The notes: a model not told the origin generated them from the letters alone. Counted from the first letter of the stretch, positions 42,748 to 63,024 are shown. The stretch: DNA of 64,000 nt from an uncultured Candidatus Saccharibacteria bacterium (GCA_964490125.1 CAZBAJ010000001.1:3573-67572), one strand, 5' to 3'. A program made the numbers and translations.

Positions 42748-42783
42748 TTGTTTTTAGTTTAAAGCCTTTTATACTTTAATTCA
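42748..42783 (+). promoter_or_regulatory. promoter TTGTTT-16-TATACT for HelD-like gene, leaderless geometry
   Basis: -35 42748-53, -10 42770-75, ATG 42783; AT-rich junction DNA. Confidence 0.45.
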
Positions 42784-45877: not shown

Positions 45878-45908
45878 TTTGGTAGTTGGAGGTTACGCAA
45901 GGCGAATA

Positions 45909-45936
45909 GTTGTTTCCGGAACAACCTCTGCAGAGG
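45909..45936 (+). promoter_or_regulatory. two adjacent GC-rich hairpins between TasA-like gene and sipW-like gene (possible attenuator/processing site)
   Basis: GTTGTTTCCGGAACAAC imperfect palindrome and CCTCTGCAGAGG perfect 12-nt palindrome; no T-run. Confidence 0.3.
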
Positions 45937-46002
45937 CAAAGTCGTCAATTTGCTTACGCAGACCTGCCCGCTTTGTTTTAAGCCCTGAAGCAATCTACAA
46001 AT

Positions 46003-46554: not shown

Positions 46555-49000
46555 TTATGAGACTTCGTTTAGCCTGCATCTGCGGTTGATTTTAACGCCG
46601 TTGTACGGGGATTATACCAAAGCCGGTAGAGTCATTGGTTTGGTTTTTAGGTTGCTGGCAATTTTTTACGGCCTCTTTGTTTTATTGTTTTTGGGTTTGG
46701 TAGTTTTGGTGTCGCCGTTGCTTTGGTATTTTGCTTTGTTTGGCGTATTTTATGTATTTAGATTGTGGGCGGTACTGGGTTTTATAGCGTTTTTTGCCTT
46801 GTGGTGGAAGTATACGCAAAATAAACCGACAAAGTTGGGAGAATATCGTCCGTGGGTAGCTGATGTCGTCCAAAATATTAAAATTAGGGGGAATTTAGAG
46901 GTTAGGGATTTTATTACTTCCCCGGTGCTTGCGGACTTTTTTAGTCGGTTGGAACTTACCAAAACCGATTTTGCTAACGAGCTTACCAAACTTTACTCCT
47001 ATGAGGAGTGCGTTAGACAAATATCTACTTGGGAAATTAAAGCCAAAGACTACTTACCAAAATTTGAGTCACTTTTTATAGAACCGGAGCAGGTGTTTTT
47101 GGCAGTTTTGTCGACCTTACCTAATTTAGAAAGATTTATGGCTAAGTACAATTTAATACTTAGCGACTTTGAAGGTTGCGCCAAGTGGTTAATAGAGCGG
47201 CGCGACGATAAGGAACGGGCGCATGTTTGGCAGGACTATTACAAACTGCCGGTAATGGGCGGAATTGGTAAGGGATTAACGGGCAGAGTAACGCCGGATC
47301 TGGACTCGGTGTCCACGGATTTTACCCAGTTAGTCAAAAAGGGTTTGGTAGAAAAAACCTATTGGCGTAAAGAGGAAATCAAGCGCGTAGCGGATCTTTT
47401 GGGTGGGTCTAACAGGAATGTGTTGATTGTAGGCGCACCCGGTGCCGGCAAAACCGGCATTGTTAAAGGCATTGCTTGGAGCGTAATTAGAGGAACGCAG
47501 TTTGACCAGTTAAAGTTTAAACGGATTGTAAGTTTAGAGGTCGGCAAGGTTCTGGCGGGAACAAAAAGCGCCGGAGATGTGGCGGACAAGCTTAAAAAAG
47601 CGGTGGAGGACGCTTTGGGCGCGGGTGATGTTATAATTTTTGTGGACGACATTCACACGCTTATTGCCGGTTCCGCGGTTGAGGATACCAAAACCAGCTC
47701 TGCCTACACTGTTCTTACTAATTATCTGGCGGATGGTCGGTTGCAATTTATTGGCGCCACCAACATAGAAAATTATCGTAAATATATAGAACCAAACGGT
47801 TCGTTTGCTCAGCTGTTTCAAATTGTCGAGGTCCCCCCGTCGTCCAAAGAAGAAACCTTAGAAATAATAAAAGTTAAAGCGGAAATTTTGGAGCAACAGT
47901 TTAAAGTCAAAACTTCCTTTACTGCGCTTACCAAAATTGTGGAGCTGGGTGACAAGCTAATTCACGAGCGGGTTTTTCCGGACAAAGCGGTGGAGATTTT
48001 AAATAGGTGCGTTTCGCAGGTTGCAAAAAGTACGCACTTTGTAACCGTCGATTTGGTTTTGCAAACGCTTTCAGAGATTACGCATATTCCGGTGTCGGCG
48101 GTTACTAACGATGAGTCGCAAAAACTGCTAAATATAGAAATGGAGATGAAAAAGCGGGTTATCGGCCAGGACGACGCCATAAACATGATAGGTTCGGCGC
48201 TTAAACGGGCGCGGGCGGGTATTAGAAACGATAAAAAACCCATGGCAAGCTTTTTGTTTGTGGGAACAACGGGCGTGGGAAAAACGGAAACGGCAAAAAC
48301 CTTGGCGCGGGTGTATTTTGGTGACGAAAAGCTAATGATTCGGCTTGATATGAGTGAGTATCAGCAGGTTGACAGTATTGACAGGCTAATTGGCGCGCCC
48401 AACGGTTCCACTAAAGGTGTGTTGACGGAGGCGGTTAGAAGTCGCCCATTTGCCCTAATTCTGTTGGACGAAATTGAAAAGGCGCACCAAAACATACTGT
48501 TGGCTTTTTTGCAGGTGTTGGACGACGGCAGACTAACGGATTCTTCTGGCACAACGGTTGATTTTACCAATACCATTATAATAGCAACCAGCAATGTGGG
48601 GACCCGGTCAATTCAGGAGGTTTTTGGCAGAAACGGCACTTTTGAGGAAATGAAGGAAGTTGCTACAAAGGATGTCCGGGAGAAATTTGCCCCGGAGTTT
48701 TTAAATAGGTTTAACGGGATTATCGTATACAAGCCGCTTTCTATGGAATCGGTTCAAAAAATTGCGGACATCATGCTTGGTAGTGTAAGAAAAATGGCGG
48801 AGGAAAAAGGCATTAAAGTTAGTTTTAAACCGGAGCTTATGGGGGAACTTTTAAAGCGCGGTTATAGCCCGGAGTGGGGCGCCCGGCCCATGGCGCGGGT
48901 AATAGAAGAAAGCGTTATGAACTATCTGGCCATTAAAATTTTGGCAAAGGAGATTGTGGCAGGCGATTCGGTGGAGTCAGGGACGGAGGTTTTTAGCTAG
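46541..49000 (+). CDS. membrane-anchored Clp/Hsp100-like ATPase with two AAA+ modules
   Basis: N-terminal multi-TM region replaces Clp N-domain; NBD1 LIVGAPGAGKTGIVKGIA..IFVDDIH; NBD2 LFVGTTGVGKTETAKTLA..LLDEIEKAH; sensor EFLNRFNGIIVYKPLS. Start uncertain: no in-frame ATG after sipW stop, so TTG 46541 or 46586 is assumed; ORF-track ATG at 46445 overlaps sipW by 110 nt. Confidence 0.75.
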   Translation: MALTNYETSFSLHLRLILTPLYGDYTKAGRVIGLVFRLLAIFYGLFVLLFLGLVVLVSPLLWYFALFGVFYVFRLWAVLGFIAFFALWWKYTQNKPTKLGEYRPWVADVVQNIKIRGNLEVRDFITSPVLADFFSRLELTKTDFANELTKLYSYEECVRQISTWEIKAKDYLPKFESLFIEPEQVFLAVLSTLPNLERFMAKYNLILSDFEGCAKWLIERRDDKERAHVWQDYYKLPVMGGIGKGLTGRVTPDLDSVSTDFTQLVKKGLVEKTYWRKEEIKRVADLLGGSNRNVLIVGAPGAGKTGIVKGIAWSVIRGTQFDQLKFKRIVSLEVGKVLAGTKSAGDVADKLKKAVEDALGAGDVIIFVDDIHTLIAGSAVEDTKTSSAYTVLTNYLADGRLQFIGATNIENYRKYIEPNGSFAQLFQIVEVPPSSKEETLEIIKVKAEILEQQFKVKTSFTALTKIVELGDKLIHERVFPDKAVEILNRCVSQVAKSTHFVTVDLVLQTLSEITHIPVSAVTNDESQKLLNIEMEMKKRVIGQDDAINMIGSALKRARAGIRNDKKPMASFLFVGTTGVGKTETAKTLARVYFGDEKLMIRLDMSEYQQVDSIDRLIGAPNGSTKGVLTEAVRSRPFALILLDEIEKAHQNILLAFLQVLDDGRLTDSSGTTVDFTNTIIIATSNVGTRSIQEVFGRNGTFEEMKEVATKDVREKFAPEFLNRFNGIIVYKPLSMESVQKIADIMLGSVRKMAEEKGIKVSFKPELMGELLKRGYSPEWGARPMARVIEESVMNYLAIKILAKEIVAGDSVESGTEVFS

Positions 49001-49022
49001 TGTTTATTATATAATTACGACT

Positions 49023-49580
49023 ATGGGGGACGAAGCCATGAATACAAAAAACTATATTGAGGAACTTAGAGCAGAAATCGACCAAATCCCCAACGAATCC
49101 ATGCGACTTTGTATGCGGGATTATTTACAAGCGCGGGAGCAAACCAGAGATATTCTAGCATTGGTTCCGGAGGATTTGTTGGACTATAAAGTTGCGCCAG
49201 GTGAAGAAGTCCAATCCCTTAGGGAAAATTTTGCAGAACTTGCACGCGTGGAAGCTAGTTTAATTAGAGGTTTACAAAGTGGACGAAGGGTACACAGTGG
49301 CGGTCACAATGTCCTGCCCGAACTACCCAAGAAAGAAGAGATTTTAAACGCTTATGAAAAATTGGATCGTGAAATGTTTACTTTGCTAAAAAATCCAGCC
49401 TTTGATCCCAAAGATACCTTTATTTATGCTGGAGAAAATGGAACCGAGCAAACTCTTAGGAAAGGCGGATCAGTTTGGTATTTCTTTTATCACGAAATGA
49501 AGGAATTGGGGTCAATAAGGGCAAAGCTGGATGGTGTTGGAATAGAACCGCCAGAATCCTACAAAAAGGCTTGGGGTTAA
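49023..49580 (+). CDS. hypothetical protein (possibly DinB/helical-bundle-like)
   Basis: ORF directly after Clp-like gene; ATG 49023; no confident family assignment. Confidence 0.45.
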   Translation: MGDEAMNTKNYIEELRAEIDQIPNESMRLCMRDYLQAREQTRDILALVPEDLLDYKVAPGEEVQSLRENFAELARVEASLIRGLQSGRRVHSGGHNVLPELPKKEEILNAYEKLDREMFTLLKNPAFDPKDTFIYAGENGTEQTLRKGGSVWYFFYHEMKELGSIRAKLDGVGIEPPESYKKAWG

Positions 49581-49582
49581 TA

Positions 49583-50470
49583 CTACCCATGGATTATTCT
49601 AAACTTTCGGTTTGAGTTAAAAATTCTTACTAATTTTTCAAAATTTTCATCGGGGTTTTGCAGTAGGCGTGCTAGGTTGTCTATTTCTCGTAGGTCGTTT
49701 TCTTTTATTGTTGGGAATACTTTTAAAAAGGCCATATCTACGGTGTTAGTATAAATAGGCTCATTATTCATTAGGCAGTGAAAATCGTAAAAGAGTTCCC
49801 ATGCTATGACGACTAGTCCTTGCGTACCTCCACTATTTTGAAAATAACCCGGATTAACTTTGCCGCTCCTTACCCTAAGCCAAGCATCAGCCGAGAAATC
49901 AAATAAGTCTTTAGGTAAGTCGTAGGGGTCGAATTTAATATAAGGTTCTATGCTGACATCGACATCTATAGATATCCAGCGGCTTTCAACAATATTCCAA
50001 TACTGGGTTATCCAATGATCCCAACTGCACCCCTTCATATCTTCGTATTCGAAATAAGGAGCAAAACCCGATCTGACGCGAGCGGGAATCCCCCTTGTTT
50101 TTAGCATCGATGCCACAAGTATTGCTACATTTCTACAACTAACAATTAAGCTATTTTCTTCTGTACATTCTAAAGTTAGACCCCGTGGGTCTCTCCTAAA
50201 AAGCTCCGAAAGCATCGAAGATGTCGTTGTGAAAACATCGTCCTCTCTGCACCTGTACCAAGGTACTTTTGTCATATCGCCATAGCGCAGGTCTTTGTTG
50301 GTTTGGGTGTTTCCGATTTCCAGAGCGTGTGCGTCGATGACACTTTTTCTAATTAAGTATCCAATTTTCTCTATGTCACTCGTTGGCAAACTCTTTAGAT
50401 AATCGGCATAACAGCCGGGAAAGGTTGCGTGCGAGTATTTTGTGTAGTAATCCAAGATAGTTTGATTCAT
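49583..50470 (-). CDS. transglutaminase-like cysteine-protease-fold protein
   Basis: VSCRNVAILVASMLKTRGIPARVRSGF (Cys), SWDHW (His), downstream Asp: Cys-His-Asp core of transglutaminase-like superfamily. Confidence 0.65.
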   Translation of the reverse strand: MNQTILDYYTKYSHATFPGCYADYLKSLPTSDIEKIGYLIRKSVIDAHALEIGNTQTNKDLRYGDMTKVPWYRCREDDVFTTTSSMLSELFRRDPRGLTLECTEENSLIVSCRNVAILVASMLKTRGIPARVRSGFAPYFEYEDMKGCSWDHWITQYWNIVESRWISIDVDVSIEPYIKFDPYDLPKDLFDFSADAWLRVRSGKVNPGYFQNSGGTQGLVVIAWELFYDFHCLMNNEPIYTNTVDMAFLKVFPTIKENDLREIDNLARLLQNPDENFEKLVRIFNSNRKFRIIHG

Positions 50471-50507
50471 GGGTGAATATTACAACCGAAAAATTTTAAT
50501 TACAACT

Positions 50508-51305
50508 TCATTCAATCGGTAAGAAAATCTCAAAAACTTGTTGGGTTGTGTCTGCGTTTACTTTCCAATATATTTCAAAGTCGGAAACTTTATTTTTCAC
50601 TTTGATTCTGTTGATCCTGCAATATTTTTCCAACTCTTTCCAAAACAGTGAAAGCATTTCTCCAGCACCACTGTGTTTATAAGAAATCACCTTTCCTGGG
50701 CTAAAGGTCATATGTCGTACAACATTCTTAAACTCCGGTTTTATGGCGATATCTTTGTCACTAAAAACGCATATTTTAATGTGGCAATTTTTTGGACGAT
50801 AGCCCTGATCCTCAAAAACAGCCATTGTGGTTAAACCGTCGTGAGGTTTTTCGATCATATTTATTAGCTCGCTACAATACATGCCGATTTTTGAGTAGGC
50901 GCCTATTTTGTCGATGTAGTAAACGCTAAGAGGTTGAAATACCGAAATTTTAGGTTTGATCATGGTCCGATTTGTTTTAAGATTTTCCAAGAAATTATCA
51001 ATATTTTTTAAGTTAAATTCTAGAGTACTCATTTCCTTTAGTATTGTCGGGCGTTTTTCCTTAAATAGTTCAACCAATTTTCCATGATTATTTAGATACT
51101 CCTTTATTTCTTTTAGAGAAATACCTAGCGTTGTGAGTAGTAAAACCATCTGATAATCTAAAATCTGTCTTTGGGAATAATACCGAAACCCCCGCAAGTC
51201 GATCCTTTCCGGTTTTAGGACACCTTTTTGGTCGTAGAATAAAATCGTTCGTTTTGTTGTACAGGCGAGTTTTGCGAACTCGCCCGGTGTTATAAAAGCG
51301 TCCAT
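50508..51305 (-). CDS. MerR-family transcriptional regulator with C-terminal GyrI-like effector-binding domain (BmrR-like)
   Basis: N-terminal MerR HTH (ITPGEFAKLACTTKRTILFYDQKGVL), long coiled linker, about 150-aa C-terminal domain of GyrI-like size. Confidence 0.8.
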   Translation of the reverse strand: MDAFITPGEFAKLACTTKRTILFYDQKGVLKPERIDLRGFRYYSQRQILDYQMVLLLTTLGISLKEIKEYLNNHGKLVELFKEKRPTILKEMSTLEFNLKNIDNFLENLKTNRTMIKPKISVFQPLSVYYIDKIGAYSKIGMYCSELINMIEKPHDGLTTMAVFEDQGYRPKNCHIKICVFSDKDIAIKPEFKNVVRHMTFSPGKVISYKHSGAGEMLSLFWKELEKYCRINRIKVKNKVSDFEIYWKVNADTTQQVFEIFLPIE

Positions 51306-51307
51306 AC

Positions 51308-51345
51308 TTGACTATAACCTCGCGTTACACCTTATTATAGCATCC
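51308..51345 (+). promoter_or_regulatory. MerR-type promoter for the UvrA paralog: TTGACT - 19 bp - TATTAT
   Basis: TTGACT 51308-51313, TATTAT 51333-51338, 19-bp spacer, ATG at 51349; divergent MerR gene starts at 51305. Confidence 0.55.
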
Positions 51346-51348
51346 ATT

Positions 51349-53607
51349 ATGTCTAATATAGTTATAAAAGGAGCGCGCGAGCACAACCTTAAAGGTGTTG
51401 ATATAACGATACCTCGCAACAAGGTTGTGTGTTTTGTGGGTGTGTCGGGTAGCGGAAAGTCCACAATTGCCTTCGATATCGTCGCAAAAGAGGGGCAAAG
51501 GCAATATTTTGAAAGTTTGTCGGCTTATGCCCGCAGGTACTTGCAAAAGAGCAATCGTCCTGATATTGACGATATCAAGGGAATATCTTCCACAGTTATT
51601 ATTAGTCAAGACAGGCTTACCAAGAATCCGCGTTCGACTGTTGGTACTGTGACTGAAACTTACACCTACCTTAGGTTGTTGTACTCTAGAGTAGGTTGGC
51701 CTCCAATGGACTCTTCCAACTATTCGTTTAATCATCCCGACGGTTTTTGTCCAAGATGTAAGGGTCTAGGTAGGGCCATGGATGTGGACATAAATAAATT
51801 AGTCGATGTGAGTTTATCTCTTAACGAGGGGGCTATAAAATATAGCAACTGGCGAGTGAATAGTATGTATTGGAAGATTGTTAGAGAAAGCGGATATTTT
51901 GATATGGACAAAAAGCTTAAAGATTTTAGTGAAAGCGAAATGAACAAGTTGCTCTATTCCAAGAAAGAGACACTGGATGACAGGGTAGGAAACGGTGTAA
52001 TCCACCCAACCTATAAGGGTATAGTAACTCATCTGCTCGGGCGTGGTTCTAGTGCAGTTAGAAGTGTAAACGATGAGGAACTAAGCTATTTTAGTTATAT
52101 AGATTGCCCTTTGTGTCACGGTTGGAGAATAAGTCAAAAAGCTTTGGAGGTTAAGTTAAATGGATTGAATATCGGCGAAGTCGGTAATTTGCCTATCTAC
52201 GATTGTCTAAGTTTTGTGCAAAGTATTAAGCACCCGCATGCCGATGTAATTAAGCCCAGACTGGAACTCCAACTCCAGCATTTAATAAACGTGGGTGTAG
52301 GGTATTTATCACTAAACAGGACTACGGATACTCTGTCGGGTGGAGAGTCGCAAAGAATAAAAATGGCAAGACAGCTCGGTTCCGACTTGACAGAGACAAT
52401 TTATGTTTTGGACGAGCCAACTGCGGGTCTGCATCCTCGCGATGTCGACAAGGTTATTGAGAACTTAAGAAAATTAAAGGACGGCGGAAACACTGTTTTA
52501 ATAGTTGAGCATGATCCGGAGGTTATAAAGTCGGCTGACTACATCATTGAAGTTGGACCTGGCGGTGGAAAAAAGGGTGGAAACATTGTTGCAACGGGTT
52601 CTTTAACCGAGATTAAAGCCAATCCAACATCTATAACAGCCAAGTACATAAATGGCAGTGACAAGATACGGTTGCCTGAAGAATATAGAGAAAGAAACGG
52701 TAATATAAGTATTGCAAATGCTTCAACCCACAACCTAAAAAATATAAGCGTTGACATTCCGACAGGCGTGTTGGTGGCGTTAACCGGTGTTTCAGGTAGT
52801 GGGAAGAGCTCGTTGGTGGAGGAAATTTGTAGGCAGTACCAGCACAAAGTCACGCTTGTTGATCAGAGCGCTGTGGGTGCTAACCAAAGAGGCTGTATTG
52901 CTACCTATACGGGAACCTTTGACATTATCAGAAAGCTCTTTGCTCAAGAAAATAAAGTCAGCGTTAGTTTATTTAGCTACAACAGTAGCGGTGCTTGTGA
53001 AGACTGCAAAGGTTTAGGTCATATGGATGTTGATATGAATTTTTTAGGTGACATCAAGATTAAGTGTCCCAAGTGTAATGGGAAAAGGTATAAGCAGGAA
53101 GTATTGAAGTATTTATATAAAGGTAAGAGCATAGATCGGGTTTTAGAAAGTACAGTTGAGGAAGCGCTAGAGTTTTTTGATCAAAAAGAAATAAAAGTTA
53201 AGCTTGCAATGTTGGCAGAAGTCGGACTAGATTATATAGAAATTGGTCAGTCTTTGGACACCTTATCGGGCGGGGAATCTCAAAGATTAAAGTTAGCCAG
53301 TCGTTTGCAAGCAAAGGGTGAGTTTTATATCTTGGACGAGCCCACTTCCGGCCTTCACCTTGCTGATGTAGAAAAGTTACTCAAACTTTTGAATCGCCTG
53401 GTTGACAATGGGAACACTGTTTTGGTAGTCGAGCATAATTTAAAGATTATTGTGTCCAGCGATTGGGTTATCGATTTAGGACCCGATGGTGGCGATAAAG
53501 GCGGGGAACTGATCGTCCAAGGAACACCAAAAGATATTTTAAGTTGTGACCAGTCGTATACCGCAAAGTATTTAAGGGGAACGGTAAGTTTGGAAAATAA
53601 AGCTTAA
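51349..53607 (+). CDS. UvrA paralog (class II, short; DrrC/UvrA2-like)
   Basis: two ABC ATPase modules (GVSGSGKST twice), four CxxC zinc modules, ABC signature LSGGESQR twice; 752 aa, lacking UvrB-binding/insertion domains. Confidence 0.85.
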   Translation: MSNIVIKGAREHNLKGVDITIPRNKVVCFVGVSGSGKSTIAFDIVAKEGQRQYFESLSAYARRYLQKSNRPDIDDIKGISSTVIISQDRLTKNPRSTVGTVTETYTYLRLLYSRVGWPPMDSSNYSFNHPDGFCPRCKGLGRAMDVDINKLVDVSLSLNEGAIKYSNWRVNSMYWKIVRESGYFDMDKKLKDFSESEMNKLLYSKKETLDDRVGNGVIHPTYKGIVTHLLGRGSSAVRSVNDEELSYFSYIDCPLCHGWRISQKALEVKLNGLNIGEVGNLPIYDCLSFVQSIKHPHADVIKPRLELQLQHLINVGVGYLSLNRTTDTLSGGESQRIKMARQLGSDLTETIYVLDEPTAGLHPRDVDKVIENLRKLKDGGNTVLIVEHDPEVIKSADYIIEVGPGGGKKGGNIVATGSLTEIKANPTSITAKYINGSDKIRLPEEYRERNGNISIANASTHNLKNISVDIPTGVLVALTGVSGSGKSSLVEEICRQYQHKVTLVDQSAVGANQRGCIATYTGTFDIIRKLFAQENKVSVSLFSYNSSGACEDCKGLGHMDVDMNFLGDIKIKCPKCNGKRYKQEVLKYLYKGKSIDRVLESTVEEALEFFDQKEIKVKLAMLAEVGLDYIEIGQSLDTLSGGESQRLKLASRLQAKGEFYILDEPTSGLHLADVEKLLKLLNRLVDNGNTVLVVEHNLKIIVSSDWVIDLGPDGGDKGGELIVQGTPKDILSCDQSYTAKYLRGTVSLENKA

Positions 53608-53674
53608 CCACTAGTTTCGTACTCTCAAAAACCCAGGTCACAATAATGATAAAATTATCTACACTAAGAAAAAT

Positions 53675-54574
53675 TTGGCAGTAATTATGGTCCCAAAAAT
53701 AACCGAACTCCAAGCCAAGTCGATTTTTACCAAATCCGGATTGCCTGGGTCGGATTGGGTAATTAATCCGTACAACGGTTGTTTATTTGGTTGCATGTAT
53801 TGTTACGCGGCGCAAATTGCTAGGTGGAAACATCCTAATGAGCAGTGGGGTACCTATTTAGATGTCAAACTAAAAGCCCCGGAGTTGCTAAAACAAGAGC
53901 TTGCCAAGTTGGAAAAACGCCATAAAACCAAGGATTTTGGCTCGGTATTTTTTAGCTCTGTTACGGATCCGTATGTGGGCGTGGAGGCAAAATACCGGCT
54001 AACCCGGCAGTGTTTAGAGGTTTTGGCGGACTTTGGATACGCGGGTGCGGTTTCGGTTCAGACCAAGTCGCCCCTAGTTACGCGGGATATTGATATGCTT
54101 GCCCGCCTAAAAAATGCTTCTGTAGGTTTTACTATTACTTCTTTGGACGACAAAATCTCCGCTTTTTTGGAGGTAATGGCGCCACCTATAAGTCATCGGT
54201 TGGATGCGTTAAAAAAGTTGCACGACGCAGGGATTTCCACCTACGCATTTGTCGGTCCTATTTTGCCGCATTTTCTCGTCGACCAGCAGATTTTAAAGAT
54301 ACTGTTAGATGAGTTGCAGGAAGTTGGCGTGACCGAGGTTTGGTTTGAGCATATAAATTTAAGTCCAAAAATTAAGGAACGCCTGTACGACTATTTGCGT
54401 AAAAAGGCTCCGGAGTTGATTGAGGTTTTTGACCAAGCTAATACACAGGAGTATCGTAATCAGTTGGACGACTTTATTGTTGCGGAAATGAAATCCCGTG
54501 GGTTGACGCTAGGGCTTAACAAAGTGATCCACCACCGGAGTTTGCCAAAGAAAGACCTTATTAATCTTGCTTGA
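53675..54574 (+). CDS. radical SAM protein, SplB / DNA-repair-photolyase-like (COG1533)
   Basis: CxxxCxxC cluster in PYNGCLFGCMYCYA near N-terminus; about 300 aa TIM-barrel size. Confidence 0.75.
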   Translation: MAVIMVPKITELQAKSIFTKSGLPGSDWVINPYNGCLFGCMYCYAAQIARWKHPNEQWGTYLDVKLKAPELLKQELAKLEKRHKTKDFGSVFFSSVTDPYVGVEAKYRLTRQCLEVLADFGYAGAVSVQTKSPLVTRDIDMLARLKNASVGFTITSLDDKISAFLEVMAPPISHRLDALKKLHDAGISTYAFVGPILPHFLVDQQILKILLDELQEVGVTEVWFEHINLSPKIKERLYDYLRKKAPELIEVFDQANTQEYRNQLDDFIVAEMKSRGLTLGLNKVIHHRSLPKKDLINLA

Positions 54575-54664
54575 TTTTTTCTAGGGGATTTGGTAACATA
54601 CGGCAGATCGAAAGATTAAGAATTCGGTGGCTAAAGGGCTCCTTTACGGAGTCCTTTGTGCATC

Positions 54665-55408
54665 TTAAGGAGTTATTTCCTTTCTCCAACAGATAAAATC
54701 CTTAATATCGAAGATGTCGAAGATGAATAAACCCTCCTTTTTAAGCTCGTTTAGTTCGGCCGAAATTCTTCCAGCCGTCCCAAAAACTACAGCGTTTCTA
54801 TTGCTTTTTAAGATTCTTCTAAGCGGGTCGTAAAAGTCGCTGTCTCCACTCCACAATATAAAATTTTGGGTTTTTCCTTTTTCGCTTTCCAAGAGCATGT
54901 CCACCGCCATCTCGACATCAAAGTTGCATTTTCTCTCCTCGATAAAATATTCTCCCCTTCTGTTCATATCTACAAAACAACCATTTAGGTATTTGATTGT
55001 TGGTGAGGTATATCTTCTAAGTAAGGCTGGGCTTATAAATTGGCGAAGTAACTCTGTTGAAGTCGGTACGATCCTTCTTGCGTCTATTTTTAATCTCATT
55101 ATCTTTACGGGTTTTGTTTGCAATGTGTAACCCAGTCTATTTATGTCATATATTTCTTTTTGCGCGTTAGGGTCGTTTTTAAGGTAGCCGTTGTAAAGGC
55201 TAACCGATTTAACGGTATCGAAAGAGTCCAAGAACTGTTTTAGCCTCTTTAATTCAATATGCCAACCAAGCTTTGTACTCCAAGGTCTTACATTAGCATA
55301 GTCAATATAAACCGCGGTAGGTTGGGCAAACACGGCTTCTAGTTTTGTTATTACATTGGGATGTAAATTAGCAAGCACCTTTATTTTGTCGGTTTTTGGT
55401 GTAAACAT
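54665..55408 (-). CDS. NYN-domain (LabA-like PIN-fold) protein
   Basis: AVYIDYANV..., FDVEMAVDML, WSGDSDFYDP acidic motifs. Confidence 0.7.
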   Translation of the reverse strand: MFTPKTDKIKVLANLHPNVITKLEAVFAQPTAVYIDYANVRPWSTKLGWHIELKRLKQFLDSFDTVKSVSLYNGYLKNDPNAQKEIYDINRLGYTLQTKPVKIMRLKIDARRIVPTSTELLRQFISPALLRRYTSPTIKYLNGCFVDMNRRGEYFIEERKCNFDVEMAVDMLLESEKGKTQNFILWSGDSDFYDPLRRILKSNRNAVVFGTAGRISAELNELKKEGLFIFDIFDIKDFICWRKEITP

Positions 55409-55601
55409 AAATGCTCAGAAGTGTTCAGGTCATACTATCAATATTTGTCCAAAAGTCAATACATATTTATTGTTAGGTACCCATTTATTCGGGCGACTTG
55501 TGAACTAATGCCCTTTCCTTCAATTCAAATAAACGCCTTTCTCTAAACCGTTTTAGTACTATTTTAATGCGCTATATCCCTAGTCGTACTATAATACCCA
55601 C

Positions 55602-56777
55602 ATGTTAATAGAACTCTCCCCCGACCAAGATCTTGCCCGCAAGTTTATTATGGATTGGTACAACTCAAAAAGTCGCCCGCCGTACATTACTTTGGGAGGC
55701 TATGCGGGCACGGGCAAGACCACGCTCATTACTTATTTACGGCGCCAGCTCAAAGTCGACCATAAAAAGCTAAAAGTGGCGTTTTGTGCTTATACGGGCA
55801 AGGCCACGCAGGTTTTAAAACGCAAGCTGGCGGAGCATAACGCTGTGCATTTTGGCGACGAAGTGCGGACGATCCACTCGCTTATTTACAAAGCTATAAC
55901 GGACGAACATGGGTTTATTATTGGTTGGCGACGGCGGGACAGCCTGGACACGGAGCCTAATTTACTAATTGTAGACGAAGCAAGTATGGTTGATCAGGAA
56001 ATTTGGCAGGACTTACTTTCTTACCATGTACCTATTATAGCGGTGGGCGACCATGGTCAGCTTCCCCCCGTGTCGGGTGACTTTAACTTAATGCAAAACC
56101 CGCACTTGAAGTTGGAAAAAATCCATCGCCAGGCGGAGGAAAATCCAATTATTAAACTTTCTGTTATAGCACGGGAAACCGGTTTGATACCGCACGGTGA
56201 CTACGGCGACCATGTTTTTAAAGCAACGCCTGCTGATGCGTCCACCATGCTAGAAAACATTTTTTGTAACTTTTCTTCCGACCAGTTAGTTTTATGCGGT
56301 TATAATTCAACCAGGGTTAAGCTAAACGCCACAATAAGGAACGCCTTGGGTTTTGAAACGCCGGAACCGTACCCGGGTGACAGAGTGATTTGTCTGCGCA
56401 ACAATAGGCAAAAAGAGGTTTACAACGGGATGTTGGGGTACCTAGAGTATATTAATAGGCTGTCTAAAAATAAATACCTAATTGAGGTCGCCATGGATTC
56501 TTATGAAGAAGGTCATACCTATTCCGGAGTTGTTTCCGCGGAGCAGTTTGGCGCGCAAAAAACACTAAATAACATTTTAGGGTACGCAAAAACTAAGGAG
56601 ATGGACTTGTTTGACTTTGGGTACGCGCTTACAGTTCACAAAGCGCAGGGGAGTCAGGCAAAAAAGGTGGTGGTGTTTGAGGAGCGCTTTTCCCGCGACA
56701 CTGAAGAGGACTGGCGCCGTTGGCTGTACACCGCTGTCACCCGCGCGGAGGAGGAACTTTTAATTGTAGGGAATTAA
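55602..56777 (+). CDS. RecD/Dda-like SF1B DNA helicase
   Basis: GGYAGTGKTTL Walker A, LLIVDEASMV Walker B, C-terminal ...VTRAEEELLIV. Confidence 0.8.
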   Translation: MLIELSPDQDLARKFIMDWYNSKSRPPYITLGGYAGTGKTTLITYLRRQLKVDHKKLKVAFCAYTGKATQVLKRKLAEHNAVHFGDEVRTIHSLIYKAITDEHGFIIGWRRRDSLDTEPNLLIVDEASMVDQEIWQDLLSYHVPIIAVGDHGQLPPVSGDFNLMQNPHLKLEKIHRQAEENPIIKLSVIARETGLIPHGDYGDHVFKATPADASTMLENIFCNFSSDQLVLCGYNSTRVKLNATIRNALGFETPEPYPGDRVICLRNNRQKEVYNGMLGYLEYINRLSKNKYLIEVAMDSYEEGHTYSGVVSAEQFGAQKTLNNILGYAKTKEMDLFDFGYALTVHKAQGSQAKKVVVFEERFSRDTEEDWRRWLYTAVTRAEEELLIVGN

Positions 56778-57311
56778 AACGCCTTCGGTTTAAATCCCGG
56801 TTTGTTTAGTATTTTTATACCGTTCCGTTTCTTGGTTATGGCAAATAATCCCTCTTTTTCAATTTCGCCCGCCCGAGCGTTTGTAAGTTTTTCGCTGGCT
56901 AAGGCGCCGTACACTTTGGTATTAATTAATAAATGGCTGTGAGAACTTTTAAAACGGGGGATGATATTTTCAACCAAGTCCACGACATCATTGTAGCTTG
57001 CTGTTTTTACTACTTTTATTACCACAGCATTGACTGGATTGTGCGCTACAACATCATAAATAAAACCGTCAATATCGGTGAGGTTTTTAATAATAATGTC
57101 AAACCTTGTCTTACGAAGTCTTTTCCTATGCTGGAGGTAAAAAATATAGACGGTCTTTAAAGCCAATCTCCTCATCGGGAAAATTCTCTTTGTACAGTTT
57201 TTGAAATTCTCTGTCGATTTGTCGCTCAAGTCGTTTTTCTTCACGGGTATCGGCGATAAGTTGCTTATACTTTGCAAATAACTCATCTTTGGTTAGATTC
57301 TCTATCTTCAT
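56774..57311 (-). pseudogene. hypothetical gene split into two overlapping frames at an A6/T6 tract (possible frameshift or sequencing error)
   Basis: ORFs 57126..57311 (61 aa) and 56774..57286 (170 aa, N-terminal 55 aa look non-protein-like) overlap in different frames around homopolymer 57139..57144. Confidence 0.3.
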
Positions 57312-57339
57312 TCGTAAATTTTAACAAAATTCTTGGAAG

Positions 57340-57801
57340 TTGGTCTATAATAAGGCTATGGAAAGTTTAGTCGACGAATTAAGGTTGGCGCGAACGGCTG
57401 TTATTGAGGCAGTTTCTAAAGTCGCCAGGAATAAACGAGAGGTTGTGTTTTTAGGCGACTGGACATTAAAGGATTTAATCGCGCATTTGACGGGCTGGGC
57501 TAATTATCAGCTTGAGGTTATTAAAGATGTCCAAACAGGCAGGATTCCCAAAGAACCCGGAAGTATTGACGGGTTTAATGAAAAATCTACTAGAAAAAGG
57601 GCGACGCAGTCTTGGGAAAAAACATATTCAGAATTTTTGGACGCTAGCCAAAAACTTATCGACACCTATCAGAAGTTACCAAACGATTTGTGGGATACCT
57701 TGCTTTGGGAAGACAAAAAGACGACTTTGAAAAAGTTTATTAATATTGAGATACGACATTACAAGAAAACACATTTGCCACAAATTTTAAAACTGGTATA
57801 G
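57340..57801 (+). CDS. ClbS/DfsB-family (DUF1706) four-helix-bundle protein
   Basis: WTLKDLIAHLTGW matches the W[ST][VL]KD[VL][IL]AHL..W hallmark of ClbS-like proteins. Confidence 0.6.
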   Translation: MVYNKAMESLVDELRLARTAVIEAVSKVARNKREVVFLGDWTLKDLIAHLTGWANYQLEVIKDVQTGRIPKEPGSIDGFNEKSTRKRATQSWEKTYSEFLDASQKLIDTYQKLPNDLWDTLLWEDKKTTLKKFINIEIRHYKKTHLPQILKLV

Positions 57802-57820
57802 CGTTTTGCAATCCCCGCTA

Positions 57821-58492
57821 TTACTTCAGTATGTATTGGGATTTAACACTATAAACGCAATAAGGTTTCCAGTTAATTTTTAAAACGCAAAGATCGATTT
57901 CAGGCCATTTATTTTCCAGCTTGATAATTTCCCTTTCGTCAAGCCAAATACATTTTTGGAGCTTCATTTTGTCCTTTTGGTTAATCGTAATCGAAGTTTT
58001 ATAAACTCCAAAAGCGTCGTCAAATATAGTATCACCGCTTTTTGTAATAACCGTTTTCATATGTAAAGAGTCGAATGTAAAATCTGTATAAGGGATATGT
58101 AAACCTGTTTCGTCGTAGAAAATTCTGGGCAAGGCATCTTCCAGGCTTTCTCCAAATAACGGCGAGCCACTTGGTAAATTGTAGAAGGTCTGCTGGTTGC
58201 TTTCATGGGGTTTGATCAGAAAATCCTCGCCGCAACTACAAACAAAGCCTACAAAGAACATTTTAAAAGCATCGTCCTTTAGATCCGTTTTTTGAAAAGT
58301 AGACAGAGTGGTTAACCCTTTAGCCGTAATAAAATACTTGTCGTTGTGTTTTTCCACCAAGTCACCTGATATCAGTCGTTTTAAATGAAAAACAATATTG
58401 TCCTCGGCATCGTAGCCACGCGCTAGAGAAGAGAATGTCCGTCCATTTTCGTCGACTAGTCTTTTGATCAGCAGTTTCTGGAGTGTGTGCAT
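57821..58492 (-). CDS. NUDIX hydrolase with N-terminal winged-helix domain
   Basis: Nudix box GSPLFGESLEDALPRIFYDETGL (Gx5Ex7R...ExG); N-terminal 70 aa wHTH-like. Confidence 0.7.
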   Translation of the reverse strand: MHTLQKLLIKRLVDENGRTFSSLARGYDAEDNIVFHLKRLISGDLVEKHNDKYFITAKGLTTLSTFQKTDLKDDAFKMFFVGFVCSCGEDFLIKPHESNQQTFYNLPSGSPLFGESLEDALPRIFYDETGLHIPYTDFTFDSLHMKTVITKSGDTIFDDAFGVYKTSITINQKDKMKLQKCIWLDEREIIKLENKWPEIDLCVLKINWKPYCVYSVKSQYILK

Positions 58493-58571
58493 AAGTGTAG
58501 TTTACTACACTAGAAGGCAGGTTGCGGACAGTATACAATTGCCGTACTAGTAAGATAGAGAGGAGGATACC

Positions 58572-58952
58572 ATGATTATCAAATTGTTTGCTGTGTGTTT
58601 ATTGGTAGGCGACTTTGAGAAGTCGCTTAACTTTTATAAGGATGTTCTGGGATTGAAGGTAAAGTCGCAGGAGGGAGACAGCTTTGCAAATTTTGAGCTT
58701 GAAGGTACGGAACTGGCGATTTTCCAGAAAGATGACGCTACAGCCATGTTCCCCAAAAAATATATGGGTAATGGTGGTGGTTCTGTTTTGGGTTTTCAGG
58801 TTGGGGAACTGGATAAATATTGTCGTGAACTTAGTCAAAAAGGTGTAGAGACAATTGAAGGACCAAAAACCACTCCGTGGGGACAAAAAGTGGCGTATTT
58901 TAGGGATCCGGATAATAATATTTGGGAGGTTTCTGAACCTTTCGAGGAATAA
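58572..58952 (+). CDS. VOC-family protein (glyoxalase/bleomycin-resistance fold)
   Basis: 126 aa, paired beta-alpha-beta-beta-beta modules, ...FRDPDNNIWEV C-terminal motif. Confidence 0.8.
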   Translation: MIIKLFAVCLLVGDFEKSLNFYKDVLGLKVKSQEGDSFANFELEGTELAIFQKDDATAMFPKKYMGNGGGSVLGFQVGELDKYCRELSQKGVETIEGPKTTPWGQKVAYFRDPDNNIWEVSEPFEE

Positions 58953-58954
58953 GT

Positions 58955-59923
58955 GTGATGTTAAACAAAGTCGCTACAATAGAAATCCTGCCAACAATTC
59001 CATTTAATTTTGACGCAACTTTTCACAAACCCGATCACTTTCCCAGCGGAGACAACATCTGTGAGGCGGGCGTCAGGTGGCAAACCTGTTTTTGGCAAAA
59101 TAAACAAGTCGGGCTTAAATTTGTCAACACAGGTACGGCAAAAAAGCCCGTGATACAAGTAGAAGTTTATTACTCCGCCAAACTCTCCCAGCAGTTTTTA
59201 GAGTCGCTCAAGCAGGAACTAAGTTATAGGTTCAATCTGCATTTGGATTTGTCGGACTTTTATGCCAACTTTAAAAACGACCCCGTGTTAAAAGAGCCTA
59301 TTAAAAGGCTTTACGGTATGCGTCCCAGCCACGCGGGATCCCTCTACGAATATTTGGTTATTGGCATTGTGTTGCAAAATACTTTTGTCAGGCGGTCGGT
59401 GCAAATGTTGCAAGCGCTGTTTGAGCATTACGGTAAGTTGCTTGAGTACGACGGCAAGAAGCTGTGGGCGTTTTGGCAACCCGGTAGTTTGGACTCTGTG
59501 ACGGAAGCTGATTTGCGCGCACTTAAATTGGGCTACCGGGCAAAGTCGGTTAAAAAGTTGGACGACGCATTTAGAGCAGGCGTTGTGGATGAGCTTGCCC
59601 TGCGTAGTGCCGATTTGGAAGCCCAAAAGCGCGAGTTGCTTAAGTTGTATGGCGTTGGTCCGGCAACAGTTTGGTATCTGCTGTTTGATGTCTTTCATCA
59701 GTACGACTTTTTTACGCACATTTCGCCTTGGGAGCAAAAGATTTATTCTAAAGTGCTGTTTAACCACGACCCGGAAAATCCTATGGAGGTTGACGAGTTA
59801 ATTAGGTATTTTGACAGGTTCGGGCAGTACCGTCAGCTAGCCGTCCACTATATTTGGGAGGACTTGTGGTGGAAGCGGAAGAACCAAAATGTTCCGTGGC
59901 TGGAAAAACTCATCCGCTTATAA
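58955..59923 (+). CDS. HhH-GPD DNA glycosylase, AlkA-like (3-methyladenine glycosylase II type)
   Basis: N-terminal AlkA-like domain plus helix-hairpin-helix LKLYGVGPATVWYLLF. Confidence 0.7.
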   Translation: MMLNKVATIEILPTIPFNFDATFHKPDHFPSGDNICEAGVRWQTCFWQNKQVGLKFVNTGTAKKPVIQVEVYYSAKLSQQFLESLKQELSYRFNLHLDLSDFYANFKNDPVLKEPIKRLYGMRPSHAGSLYEYLVIGIVLQNTFVRRSVQMLQALFEHYGKLLEYDGKKLWAFWQPGSLDSVTEADLRALKLGYRAKSVKKLDDAFRAGVVDELALRSADLEAQKRELLKLYGVGPATVWYLLFDVFHQYDFFTHISPWEQKIYSKVLFNHDPENPMEVDELIRYFDRFGQYRQLAVHYIWEDLWWKRKNQNVPWLEKLIRL

Positions 59924-59976
59924 AAGTCACACAAAAACAACTAAACCCCCGTAAATTAGAGTTCTAGCCTTATTTC

Positions 59977-59992
59977 TGGTACATTACCCCTA
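59977..59992 (+). promoter_or_regulatory. extended -10 TGgTACATT 6 nt upstream of prfB ATG (leaderless candidate)
   Basis: TG 59977-78, TACATT 59980-85, ATG 59992. Confidence 0.4.
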
Positions 59993-60996
59993 TGGAAGAC
60001 TTGCACGAGCGCCTTACAACGCTTAGAAAAAAACTAAATATTGAGGCAAAAAAGGATGAAATCTCCGCGCTAAAAGAAAAGATGCAGGACGACTCGGTTT
60101 GGCAGGACTGGGAAAAAGGTCAAAAACTTTCTAAGGAGCTTTCTGACTTGCAAAAAGAGGTGGAGGATTTTGAGATGCTGGAGCTTGTTGCGCAAGAGGA
60201 AAATCTCGAGGAATTTGAAAAAGCTTTATGGGAATTGGAAAAAAAGACTTATTTAAGTATGCCGTACGACAAAAGCGGGGCAATTCTTTCTATTCACGCG
60301 GGTCAGGGCGGGACGGAGGCCATGGACTGGACGGAAATGTTGTACAGAATGTACACGCGGTTTTGCGACAATAAAAATTGGAAGCATGAAATTTTGGCAA
60401 TGACGCCGGGTGACGAGGCGGGTTATAAATCGGTAAGTATAGAAATTGACGGTAAATATGTGTACGGGTTTTTAAAAAACGAGTCGGGGGTGCATCGGCT
60501 GGTACGACAGTCGCCCTTTAATGCCAATGACCTGCGTCAAACCTCTTTTGCTCTAGTAGAGGTAATTCCGTTGGTAGACGATTCAATTGCGGATATAGAA
60601 ATTAAGGAGGACGATTTGGAGTGGGATTTTTTTAGAGCAGGCGGACACGGTGGCCAAAATGTTAACAAAGTTTCCACGGCTGTGCGACTTAAACACAAAC
60701 CAACGGGCATTATTATAGAAAACCAAACGGAGCGTTATCAGGGGAAAAATCGGGAAAAGGCGTTGCAGGTATTAAAGTCTAAATTGTACGCACTGCAGTT
60801 GGAGGAAGCTAAAAAGGAAGAAAGAAAAATGAAGGGGGATTATAAAGTACCGGGTTGGGGCAATCAAATCCGTAATTATATTTTACATCCTTACAAGCTA
60901 GTTAAGGATTTACGGACAGATTTAGAATCAACGAATCCGGAGAAAGTTTTGGACGGGGAATTGGATGAGTTTATAGATGCAGAGTTGAAGCTTTAG
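59992..60996 (+). CDS. prfB: peptide chain release factor 2, single uninterrupted ORF
   Basis: SPF tripeptide (QSPFNAND), GGQ motif ([18 protein letters not shown]). Confidence 0.9.
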
Positions 60997-61036
60997 GAAT
61001 TTTTCCAAAAACTATAGACAAATTTTGTACTCAATA

Positions 61037-61050
61037 TATAATAGTCGATA
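61037..61050 (+). promoter_or_regulatory. TATAAT 7 nt upstream of DUF3048 gene ATG (leaderless candidate)
   Basis: TATAAT 61037-61042, ATG 61050. Confidence 0.4.
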
Positions 61051-62309
61051 TGGAGAAGGTAGAAATTAATCCCACTGATCAGGAAAGCGCTCAAATAATA
61101 AATCAGGACGCGGTTCCGGCGCCACATTTTGTCAACCCGCAAGAATTGCAACCGGGAGGCTCGTTTAGCAAAAAGTATATTATTGCCGGTCTTGTGGTGG
61201 GATTGGTGCTGGTTGGGGCATTTTTTGCGCTGTCCTACTTTAAAAATTCAAACTTGTGGGTAAACAGGTCTTCCGTGTTTAAAAATGTGGGCGACGGGGG
61301 AGCCAAGCCCAAAGAAATCGTCAAACCAATTATGAATCCGTTGACCGGCGTAATGTACACAGAAGAAGATTCCGCAAGCTGGAAGGATGTGCGACCTTTA
61401 GGTGTAATGATTAACAATCATCCGGATGCCCGTCCGCAAGCAGGTTTGGTGGACGCGGAATTTACCTATGAAATTGTAGCGGAGGGCGGAATTACCCGCT
61501 TTTTGGCGTTTTACCAGTCGGTTTTGCCGGAAAAAGTTGGACCAATTAGAAGCGCGCGGGAATATTATTTAGTAATGGCAAAAGAAATGGGTGACGCTAT
61601 GTACATGCACCACGGTTTTTCCCCGCAGGCGTTAATTGACATTGATAGCTGGCCGGTACGAAGTTTGCAGAGGGGAAACGCCCCCACTTGGCGGGAAAAT
61701 CCGCGAAATGTGGCGGTAGAACACACTCTCTACGCTAACGCTAAAGAGCTGGTAAAAACCGGTCTAGATTTGGGTTGGACGGGTAAGGCAGAGGATTTTT
61801 ACACCTGGCAGTTTAAGGACGATACGGGTACTTACGGCTCCATGCCGGAAGCAGATAAAATTTCGTACGACTTTTGGTACCAGGGCGACTTTTCTGCCAT
61901 GTGGCAGTATGACAAATCGTCCAACAGCTATTTAAGGTTTATGGGTTTTGACGACGGCGGTAAGGAAATACCCCACAAAGATGAAACAACCGGAAAGCAG
62001 ATTTCCGTATCCAATTTAATAGTCCAATTTGCTACGGAAACTAAGATTGCGGGTGACGAAAAGAATCGGTTGGACTACACTTTAATAGGAAGCGGTAAGG
62101 GTTATGTCTTTTTAGATGGTCGTGCAATTGAAGTTACTTGGAGTAAAGCCGGTAGAGACGCCCGCACCAAATATTATGATACAAACGGCGCGGAAGTTAA
62201 GTTTAATCGTGGCAAGTTTTGGGTAGCAATAATTCCAGATCGAAGTCCAGAAAATTTAAAGTTTAGTTCGTCTACGGCGTCGCCAAGTGCTACGCCTACT
62301 GCCCAGTAA
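61050..62309 (+). CDS. DUF3048-family membrane-anchored protein (YerB-like)
   Basis: N-terminal TM helix then RPLGVMINNHPDARPQAGL..YEIVAEGGITRFLAFY block typical of DUF3048. Confidence 0.75.
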   Translation: MEKVEINPTDQESAQIINQDAVPAPHFVNPQELQPGGSFSKKYIIAGLVVGLVLVGAFFALSYFKNSNLWVNRSSVFKNVGDGGAKPKEIVKPIMNPLTGVMYTEEDSASWKDVRPLGVMINNHPDARPQAGLVDAEFTYEIVAEGGITRFLAFYQSVLPEKVGPIRSAREYYLVMAKEMGDAMYMHHGFSPQALIDIDSWPVRSLQRGNAPTWRENPRNVAVEHTLYANAKELVKTGLDLGWTGKAEDFYTWQFKDDTGTYGSMPEADKISYDFWYQGDFSAMWQYDKSSNSYLRFMGFDDGGKEIPHKDETTGKQISVSNLIVQFATETKIAGDEKNRLDYTLIGSGKGYVFLDGRAIEVTWSKAGRDARTKYYDTNGAEVKFNRGKFWVAIIPDRSPENLKFSSSTASPSATPTAQ

Positions 62310-62347
62310 TTAATTTGGAGCGCCTTACTGCTCGGGCGAAATAAAAT

Positions 62348-62932: not shown

Positions 62933-62970
62933 CTTAATAGTACTGCCGGGTGTGGGAATGTGTTAAAATT

Positions 62971-63006
62971 TTGGTCGACTTGATTGGTTTGATTGGTTTG
63001 ACTGGT
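62971..63006 (+). repeat. tandem 9-mer (TTGATTGGT x about 4, slightly degenerate) upstream of secD
   Basis: TTGGTCGAC TTGATTGGT TTGATTGGT TTGACTGGT. Confidence 0.6.
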
Positions 63007-63024
63007 GCATTTTGTCAAATTGCT

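Follow-up and report, generated by a model that had tools for sequence, protein, structure and literature searches.

The 64,000-nucleotide (nt) stretch analyzed here (CAZBAJ010000001.1:3573-67572), hereafter the window, is a chromosome segment of the Patescibacteria, or candidate phyla radiation (CPR). It carries a gene pair formed by uvrA2, which encodes a class II UvrA, and its divergent neighbor merR, which encodes a regulator of the MerR family. The pair is best explained, with a probability of about 0.6, as the core of a swappable, ligand-gated UvrA2 resistance cassette of the DrrC/Ecm16 kind, set within a mosaic variable region. This region is bounded by clp, a gene for a ClpB/C-type ATPase ending at 49000, and by prfB, which starts at 59992. 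A preliminary description of the window had singled out positions 50508-59923, with ten open reading frames (ORFs), as one island of defense against DNA damage. All ten ORFs are present where it placed them. They do not make up one unit: only the merR-uvrA2 pair is fixed, and the remaining genes are real, loosely associated neighbors.

The identification of a UvrA paralog in this region is fully borne out, since the uvrA2 product matches the model TIGR00630 with 812 bits. Residues 1-119 align to positions 21-139 of the UvrA from G. stearothermophilus (2r6f), and residues 122-745 to positions 282-955. The gap of about 140 residues coincides exactly with the intervening domain; the protein therefore lacks zinc module 1 and the UvrB-binding domain and belongs to class II. 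Both ATP-binding cassette (ABC) modules are intact in the translation, with the Walker A motifs GVSGSGKST and GVSGSGKSS, two copies of LSGGESQR, and the motifs VLDEPT and ILDEPT. The insertion domain and the C-terminal zinc module (CEDCKG...CPKCNG) are retained as well and align to those of UvrA. Class IIa UvrA proteins, among them DrrC and Ecm16, are defined by the loss of the first zinc module and of the UvrB-binding domain (PMC9328131). Resistance to echinomycin through Ecm16 needs none of UvrB, UvrC and UvrD, and Ecm16 does not substitute for UvrA in the repair of UV damage (PMC9328131). Some CPR orthologues of UvrA2 (at least one) are already annotated as DrrC by NCBI.

The regulator encoded by merR begins with a winged helix-turn-helix (wHTH) domain, which is matched by the Pfam models MerR_1 (49.1 bits) and MerR (31.6 bits) and is found in all 20 orthologues. 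The second half of the assignment as a MerR/GyrI protein is less direct. In the window copy the GyrI-like domain stays below threshold, with 21.1 bits where the cutoff is 26; the same domain is matched in 18 of the 20 orthologues, with a best E-value of 6.9e-12. The nearest solved relatives are EcmrR and then multidrug sensors of the BmrR type, with SkgA also among them, and the alignment to EcmrR reaches residue 180 of the window protein. Judged from the orthologue matches and this alignment, a GyrI-like effector domain is present in the window MerR.

The region between the two genes holds the promoter of uvrA2, which is near-invariant in all 22 related loci: TTGAC(T/A), a 19-nt spacer, and TATTAT. 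Inside the spacer, and overlapping the end of the -35 box, lies the palindrome TATAACGT-A-ACGTTATA. Promoters activated by MerR proteins are characterized by a 19-bp spacer with a dyad at its center, as seen in the complexes of BmrR and EcmrR. An extended -10 element placed to serve merR, TGCTATAAT, overlaps the uvrA2 promoter on the minus strand, and where a locus has a longer spacer, the start of uvrA2 adjoins a TTGACA for merR. MerR very probably controls uvrA2 through this promoter. The operator/promoter element occurs exactly once in the window (51308-51339), where no copy is expected by chance, and a search for a second MerR operator across the window found none. The operator being single, there is no wider MerR regulon in the window, and nothing ties the other genes to merR. 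The -10 box ends 9 nt 5' of the uvrA2 ATG in the window, and this closeness to the start codon implies a near-leaderless mRNA. A gap of 6-9 nt between the -10 box and the uvrA2 start codon, implying a leaderless or near-leaderless mRNA, is shared by the window (51334-51351) and four relatives (L009, L012, L013 and L018).

Individual promoters had been proposed for the genes of the region, and this proposal was not confirmed: the 30 promoter-like sites found compare with 26.7 +/- 4.8 in shuffled sequences, and the terminator scan likewise did not rise above shuffles. The scan detected no terminator-like site between uvrA2 and the radical SAM gene that follows it, and read-through from one into the other is possible. 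A TATAAT sequence lies about 9 nt 5' of a candidate ATG (49024) of the DinB-like gene.

Conservation of the pair was followed through the surroundings of UvrA2 relatives at 49 loci of GTDB species representatives and at two assembly-derived loci, and every protein of the region was searched against them. A reciprocal set comprised 80 metagenomic loci anchored on the radical SAM gene (66-83% identity). The homologues of UvrA2 come from Shapiro-, Roizman-, Gottesman- and Beckwithbacteria and from WWE3, which is the nearest group. Wherever a CPR locus contains DNA upstream of uvrA2, merR is its divergent neighbor (22 of 22 loci, with UvrA2 57-87% identical). No merR/GyrI partner was found beside the 40-48%-identical UvrA2 genes of Bacilli, Clostridia and Actinobacteria. 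The other genes of the region are missing from most uvrA2 loci, and linkage beyond the pair is absent in about 18 of the 22. Among the uvrA2-anchored loci, the radical SAM gene is near uvrA2 in L003 and L020 only, wHTH-Nudix homologues occur near the pair in L010, L020 and L046, DinB-like homologues adjoin uvrA2 in L004 and L020, a transglutaminase-like homologue does so in L004, and a helicase in L019. The genes for the NYN, orphan, VOC and Ogg-like proteins were found at none of these loci. In the reciprocal set, uvrA2 is adjacent in two or three of the 80 loci (L062 and, probably, L065) and absent in about 77; in single cases the radical SAM gene has an Ogg-like gene (L084) or prfB (L128) as its neighbor. 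The co-localization that was claimed for all ten genes thus holds for merR and uvrA2, and the rest are largely dispersed and unlinked in relatives.

Some relatives show further changes at the locus. In a WWE3 bacterium (GW2011_GWC2_44_9; L020, 4329-5568) and equally in L062 (6773-8012), a 1.24-kb insertion containing two transposase-like ORFs of 103 and 278 amino acids (aa) interrupts an orthologue of uvrA2 (82-87% identical), so that the module is pseudogenized in this population. Elsewhere an extra gene lies between merR and uvrA2, 3' of the MerR-type promoter. It encodes a YobF_C protein (PF27157) in L001 (9075-9953) and L002 (9021-9953), and an unrelated 268-aa protein in L020 (2280-3086). 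No homology was detectable among the transglutaminase-like protein of the window, the YobF_C proteins and the 268-aa protein; as these three types are non-homologous, there is no conserved third gene.

In the window, the pair belongs to a strain-specific block of 4.7 kb, cassette A, together with a DinB-like and a transglutaminase-like gene. The Logan contig L132 represents a sister strain whose sequence runs collinear with the window: blastn aligns positions 45872-48995 at 94.3% and positions 53686-64000 at 99.2%, and leaves 48996-53685 without a counterpart. The strain-specific DNA hence begins at 48996 and not at 50508, where the left boundary had been drawn. At the position of cassette A, the sister strain carries a gene for a GNAT acetyltransferase and a three-gene ABC-2 transporter composed of an ATPase and two ABC2_membrane_6 permeases. 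The best NCBIfam match of the ATPase is drrA, at 215 bits; the cutoff is 312, and the transporter can therefore only be called a DrrA-like ABC-2 system. The junctions of the cassette fall exactly at the stop codon of clp and the start codon of the radical SAM gene. No flanking repeats, tRNA genes or integrase were found around it, and its composition is unremarkable (GC content 0.400, against 0.421 in the genes downstream and a range of 0.369-0.449 in the window). An integrative element was considered for cassette A and rejected, as it has neither flanking repeats nor mobility genes.

Differences between the window and the sister strain pile up beside the cassette, with 24 in the 5' half of the radical SAM gene and one in 59087-64000. 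This patchy divergence next to the junctions has the signature of a cassette exchange by homologous recombination. Patches of difference lie in the radical SAM gene (53734-54538), between the NYN and helicase genes (55362-55664, with 32 differences), at 57528-57550 and at 58987-59086, and the last 4.9 kb of the window contain one difference. L133, which is less closely related, shares the flanks of the locus and also carries the ABC cassette. It keeps four of the eight genes found downstream of the cassette in the window (53686-59923, hereafter part B), namely those for the helicase, the orphan homologue, the DUF1706 protein and the Ogg-like protein. It lacks the NYN, wHTH-Nudix and full-length VOC genes, and a 138-bp 5' remnant of the radical SAM gene is left. 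In this relative the Ogg-like gene is 92% identical to that of the window and its neighbors about 80%. Together with the patchy differences between strains, this value points to frequent short-tract recombination. With cassette A replaced in one close relative and part B a mosaic in the other, presence and absence are polymorphic at close range, and the region is accessory, as had been proposed, in the form of a strain-variable recombination mosaic.

These observations can be joined in a model that extends beyond them. MerR, with its GyrI-like domain, would bind the divergent uvrA2 promoter at its dyad, which lies in an over-long spacer of 19 nt. Binding of a planar or aromatic xenobiotic would then realign the -35 and -10 boxes and switch uvrA2 on; the class of inducer, activation by DNA distortion and the eviction of drugs are the parts that we infer. 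As UvrA2 has no UvrB-binding domain, excision repair by UvrABC cannot begin with it. If DrrC and Ecm16 are a guide, it might instead recognize drug-distorted DNA and clear the drug by ATP hydrolysis, independently of UvrBC, and for this function the odds appear even. The DinB-like and transglutaminase-like genes would be variable passengers of the module, and part B a mosaic whose genes, of housekeeping, stress and nucleic-acid types, are mobile individually, with no shared regulation or conserved linkage. The DrrA-like exporter of the sister strain would fit a locus that serves as a slot for functions in xenobiotic resistance. A wider and more tentative proposal is that several CPR classes share a dedicated ligand-gated module for the "de-drugging" of DNA, made up of a MerR/GyrI xenobiotic sensor and a class II UvrA linked by the near-invariant promoter, which within one WWE3 population alternates with a DrrAB-like exporter at one locus.

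Several points weigh against the cassette model. The similarity of UvrA2 amounts to 604 bits for Ecm16, 538 bits for the UvrA2 of D. radiodurans and 655 bits for canonical UvrA; as it is no nearer to either class II protein than to canonical UvrA, a drug specificity can be assigned to it purely by analogy. Of the 17 dyad positions in the operator core of the window, 4 depart from the consensus, the ACGT cores included, and with such a drifted dyad the control of uvrA2 may be weaker in this strain. The recurrence of radical SAM, wHTH-Nudix and DinB genes near uvrA2 in a few lineages may reflect a loose functional association. This recurrence (L003, L004, L010, L020 and L046) would also be expected from the preliminary description, in which the whole 9.5 kb was a coordinated island where UvrA2, the ClbS-like and VOC proteins, the glycosylase, the radical SAM enzyme and the helicase together gave defense against, or self-resistance to, a DNA-damaging small molecule. 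Several self-protection folds do occur side by side (UvrA2, the DUF1706/ClbS fold, VOC and DinB), an Ogg-like gene adjoins the radical SAM gene in L084, and the alternative cassette of the sister strain, with its DrrA-type exporter, is resistance-like too. Such an island is nevertheless improbable. Most loci of both comparison sets show no linkage beyond the pair, the sister strain retains part B without uvrA2, and the more distant relative has lost the radical SAM, NYN, wHTH-Nudix and full-length VOC genes. The operator stands upstream of uvrA2 only, the strands are mixed, one gene is an apparent pseudogene, and the catalytic motifs of the Ogg-like and Nudix-like proteins are non-canonical. 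Self-resistance of a producer finds no support in the 64 kb, which contain no biosynthetic cluster and no polyketide synthase or nonribosomal peptide synthetase domains and are otherwise of housekeeping character (rpoBC, ribosomal proteins, clp and prfB). A link to DNA-binding small molecules is plausible for merR and uvrA2, but not as a coordinated defense by ten genes.

UvrA2 could also serve more generally in sensing damage or backing up repair, whether the lesions are endogenous, oxidative or caused by UV, with MerR sensing physiological stress and not a xenobiotic. Such a role has been suggested for the UvrA2 of D. radiodurans, Xanthomonas and P. putida, and class IIa UvrA proteins of non-producers have minor UV or mutagenesis phenotypes, which are weak and varied (PMC9328131). 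Stress genes are the targets of some regulators combining MerR and GyrI domains, one solved relative of the window MerR is SkgA, and the high conservation in CPR bacteria (57-87%) suggests a core-like function. Even so, this role is unlikely: without the UvrB-binding domain UvrBC cannot be fed, the cassette is dispensable, being absent from a near-identical strain and disrupted by an insertion sequence in L020, and the GyrI-like effector domains of MerR regulators are typically multidrug sensors. An anti-phage island, built from a MADS-like MerR and ABC ATPase, a NYN nuclease and a Dda-like helicase or PDC-M16-like component, has very little probability. PADLOC does report mad3 for UvrA2 (274 bits), mad1 for MerR (25 bits), PDC-M16A for the helicase (145 bits) and NYN (35 bits); the helicase resembles phage Dda, the region is strain-variable, and toxin-antitoxin genes adjoin the helicase homologue in L019. 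The matches to mad3 and mad8, however, reflect generic ABC/UvrA similarity, as the 812 bits to TIGR00630 indicate, the helicase spans only part of the 691-930-aa PDC-M16A models, and the Pfam and PADLOC scans found no methyltransferase, integrase or other defense signature in the region. The mandatory components of MADS are mad6, mad7 and mad8 (10.1101/2023.03.30.534895). Both MADS and PDC systems were rejected: mandatory parts are missing, there are no equivalents of mad6 and mad7, and the similarity to mad3, mad8 and mad1 is of a generic ATPase or HTH kind. The reading preferred over all of these is that of a ligand-gated UvrA2 cassette, exchanged as a block within a mosaic region.

Table 1. 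Features of the variable interval between clp and prfB, with positions counted from the first nucleotide of the window.
Feature	Position	Strand	Basis
Cassette A, strain-specific 4.7-kb block (DinB-like, transglutaminase-like, merR, uvrA2)	48996..53685	.	blastn against the sister strain (L132)
DinB-fold protein	49041..49580	+	Pfam DinB and DinB_2, about 20 bits, below cutoffs
Transglutaminase-like (Cys-His-Asp fold) protein	49583..50470	-	Pfam Transglut_core, 24.2 bits (cutoff 23)
merR, MerR-family regulator with C-terminal GyrI-like effector domain	50508..51305	-	Pfam, solved relatives, orthologues
PuvrA2: -35 TTGACT, 19-nt spacer with MerR-type dyad operator, -10 TATTAT	51308..51339	+	Conserved in 22 loci
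uvrA2, class II UvrA (DrrC/Ecm16-like), 752 aa	51349..53607	+	TIGR00630, alignment to 2r6f, motifs
Radical SAM enzyme, COG1533 group (PA0069/Rv2578c-like)	53687..54574	+	NCBIfam, Pfam, PHROG
NYN (LabA-like) nuclease-fold protein	54665..55408	-	Pfam NYN, 52.7 bits; PADLOC NYN, 35 bits
Dda/RecD-like SF1B helicase, 391 aa	55602..56777	+	phrog_325, 306 bits; TIGR01448 RecD2, 133 bits
Orphan gene with +1 frameshift	56774..57311	-	A-run at 57138-57143; comparison with L132
DUF1706/DinB-clan four-helix-bundle protein, ClbS/DfsB fold	57340..57801	+	Pfam, AlphaFold, Foldseek; likely start ATG 57370
Winged-HTH and Nudix-like protein, degenerate Nudix box	57821..58492	-	Pfam, homologues, PHROG
VOC/glyoxalase-bleomycin-resistance-fold protein	58572..58952	+	Pfam Glyoxalase, 73 bits; Ble-like_N, 34 bits
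Ogg/AlkA-like HhH-GPD protein	58955..59923	+	TIGR00588, 60 bits; 4ejy and CacOgg, E 2e-12

The two remaining genes of cassette A had been left outside the island (Table 1). The start of the DinB-like gene is uncertain, with ATG codons at 49024 and 49041 and a listed ORF that runs from a TTG at 48954, inside clp; its homologue in L020 scores above the DinB_2 cutoff (29.9 bits). The homologue of the transglutaminase-like gene in L004 lies directly 3' of uvrA2 (E 7e-25). Genes for a UvrD-like helicase (42783-44795) and the DinB-fold protein (48954-49580) are found just beyond the coordinates first given. The first 42 kb of the window contain ORFs of the size of rpoB and rpoC and the ribosomal-protein supercluster. 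Neither tRNA genes (ARAGORN) nor Rfam elements (scan at gathering thresholds) were detected in the 64 kb, and the r-protein leader models are unmatched in this lineage in spite of the presence of the rpoBC and ribosomal-protein clusters.

Most family calls made for part B are sustained at the level of family or fold, and activities of the spore-photoproduct-lyase (SPL), ClbS and glycosylase types are no more than putative. The NYN, VOC and Dda-like helicase assignments stand as they were made (Table 1). The enzyme described as SplB-like belongs to the radical SAM superfamily, with the cluster motif CxxxCxxC (CLFGCMYC), 51.5 bits to PF04055 and 38.6 bits to a PHROG "DNA repair photolyase" family. 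Its best models are rSAM_mob_pairB, PA0069 and Rv2578c, at 126-158 bits and all below their cutoffs. Identity as an SPL was rejected at every model cutoff (TIGR04070, 23.6 against 400; TIGR03886, 22 against 437; PF20903, 24 against 27), and a sequence search found no relative of solved structure. The gene lies directly 3' of uvrA2 in L003, in L020/L062 and probably in L065. The NYN gene is present in the sister strain and absent in L133. The helicase is kept in the sister strain (99.5%), in L133 (84% at the aa level) and in L019 (53%).

The orphan gene had been reported as frameshifted, and this is correct: the window has six A residues where the sister strain has five, and there the ORF is an intact 178 aa. 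The extra A could be an error of sequencing or assembly, the mark of a true pseudogene, or slippage-prone phase variation. A homologue with 30% identity exists in L133, and the sister strain has a paralog between secF and recJ. No family in Pfam, NCBIfam, PHROG or PADLOC matched the orphan, and a single database homologue was found.

The DUF1706 protein had been presented as a relative of ClbS and DfsB. It belongs to their family (PF08020, 29.0 bits against a cutoff of 24.2) and shares their fold. The AlphaFold model has a pLDDT of 91.8, and the top Foldseek matches in the PDB are the ClbS structures 7mtl and 6anr, with TM scores of 0.78-0.80; the folds of YfiT and MDMPI score nearly as high. 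Identity to ClbS in the structural alignment is 16-17%. At the level of sequence, phmmer and a 12-sequence profile gave no match to ClbS in the PDB at E <= 1 or E <= 10 and matched no solved structure. The ClbS-like proteins that were shown to protect against colibactin are at least 26.8% identical to ClbS (PMC8907063). A ClbS-type activity is thus only putative for this protein.

The wHTH-Nudix designation rests on homology. The window protein has no Pfam Nudix domain, and its box, GSPLFGESLEDALPRIFYDETGL, is degenerate, with RI for RE and DE for EE (RIFYDE against the expected REUxEE of the consensus GX5EX7REUXEEXGU). It is matched by phrog_1198 (MutT/NUDIX) with an E-value of 6e-6, and its homologues in L010 and L046 have canonical Nudix boxes (PF00293, 47-50 bits). 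The VOC protein is 100% identical in the sister strain. For the AlkA-like glycosylase, homology holds over about 210 residues of 4ejy and the clostridial CacOgg, but the canonical Lys and Asp do not: the motif GVGPA has Ala for the Schiff-base Lys, and THISPWE has Ser257 for the Asp, with Glu260 three residues further on. Among 55 full-length representatives of the Ogg/AlkA-like family, the pattern is D...(S/N/other) in 27 and (S/P/A/G)...(E/D) in about 22, the window protein among them. The loss of Asp thus covaries with a carboxylate three residues downstream, which suggests that in a subfamily the catalytic carboxylate has moved and that the enzyme is not dead. Glycosylase activity may be retained by this means.

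The findings bear on the function of class II UvrA outside antibiotic producers. A conserved partner of the drug-sensor type and a textbook MerR promoter offer a testable hypothesis as well as a natural reporter for inducers. They also indicate that CPR bacteria with reduced genomes keep an inducible response to xenobiotics. The swap of the UvrA2 module for an ABC-2 exporter in near-identical strains shows how homologous recombination at one fixed hot spot lets the resistance repertoire vary. The wider notion of a ten-gene island is unsupported, and the ten genes should not be presented further as a functional unit. If a de-drugging module is indeed spread across the CPR, DNA-intercalating natural products, possibly from hosts or from neighbors such as actinomycetes, would repeatedly exert selection on these ultra-small episymbionts, and the function of UvrA2 in non-producers would be drug eviction under direct chemical sensing.

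The components described here are of kinds already known: UvrA2/DrrC/Ecm16, MerR/GyrI sensors, VOC, DinB/DUF1706, Nudix and NYN proteins, and Dda helicases. The literature searched contained no description of the MerR/GyrI-UvrA2 pairing, of UvrA2 in CPR bacteria or of the alternation of cassettes. The DUF1706 protein shares its Pfam family and best predicted fold match with the orphan colibactin-resistance proteins ClbS and DfsB, from which it differs in its low structural identity and in the missing sequence-level match. Likeness to the ABC-2 exporters of the DrrAB type belongs to the alternative cassette of the sister strain and not to the window itself. With DrrC of Streptomyces peucetius and Ecm16 of S. 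lasalocidi, the window UvrA2 has in common two ABC modules and the insertion and zinc DNA-binding modules, and all are alike in being without zinc module 1 and the UvrB-binding domain (PMC9328131). Unlike those genes, uvrA2 of the window lies outside any biosynthetic cluster, in a Patescibacterium of reduced genome, and under a dedicated divergent MerR/GyrI regulator. The UvrA2 of D. radiodurans (2vf7) and other class II UvrA proteins of non-producers have the same architecture in organisms that do not make genotoxins; the D. radiodurans protein is the weaker match, whereas the CPR gene is part of a conserved pair with merR and, in the window, of an accessory cassette. With sensors of the BmrR/EcmrR type, the window MerR shares the N-terminal wHTH and the C-terminal GyrI-like ligand domain, and the promoters share the 19-nt spacer, the dyad overlapping the -35 box and a divergent regulator gene with an overlapping promoter. 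The window system differs from them in that its target is a UvrA paralog and not an efflux pump, its mRNA has a short leader or is near-leaderless, and its operator sequence is specific to this family.

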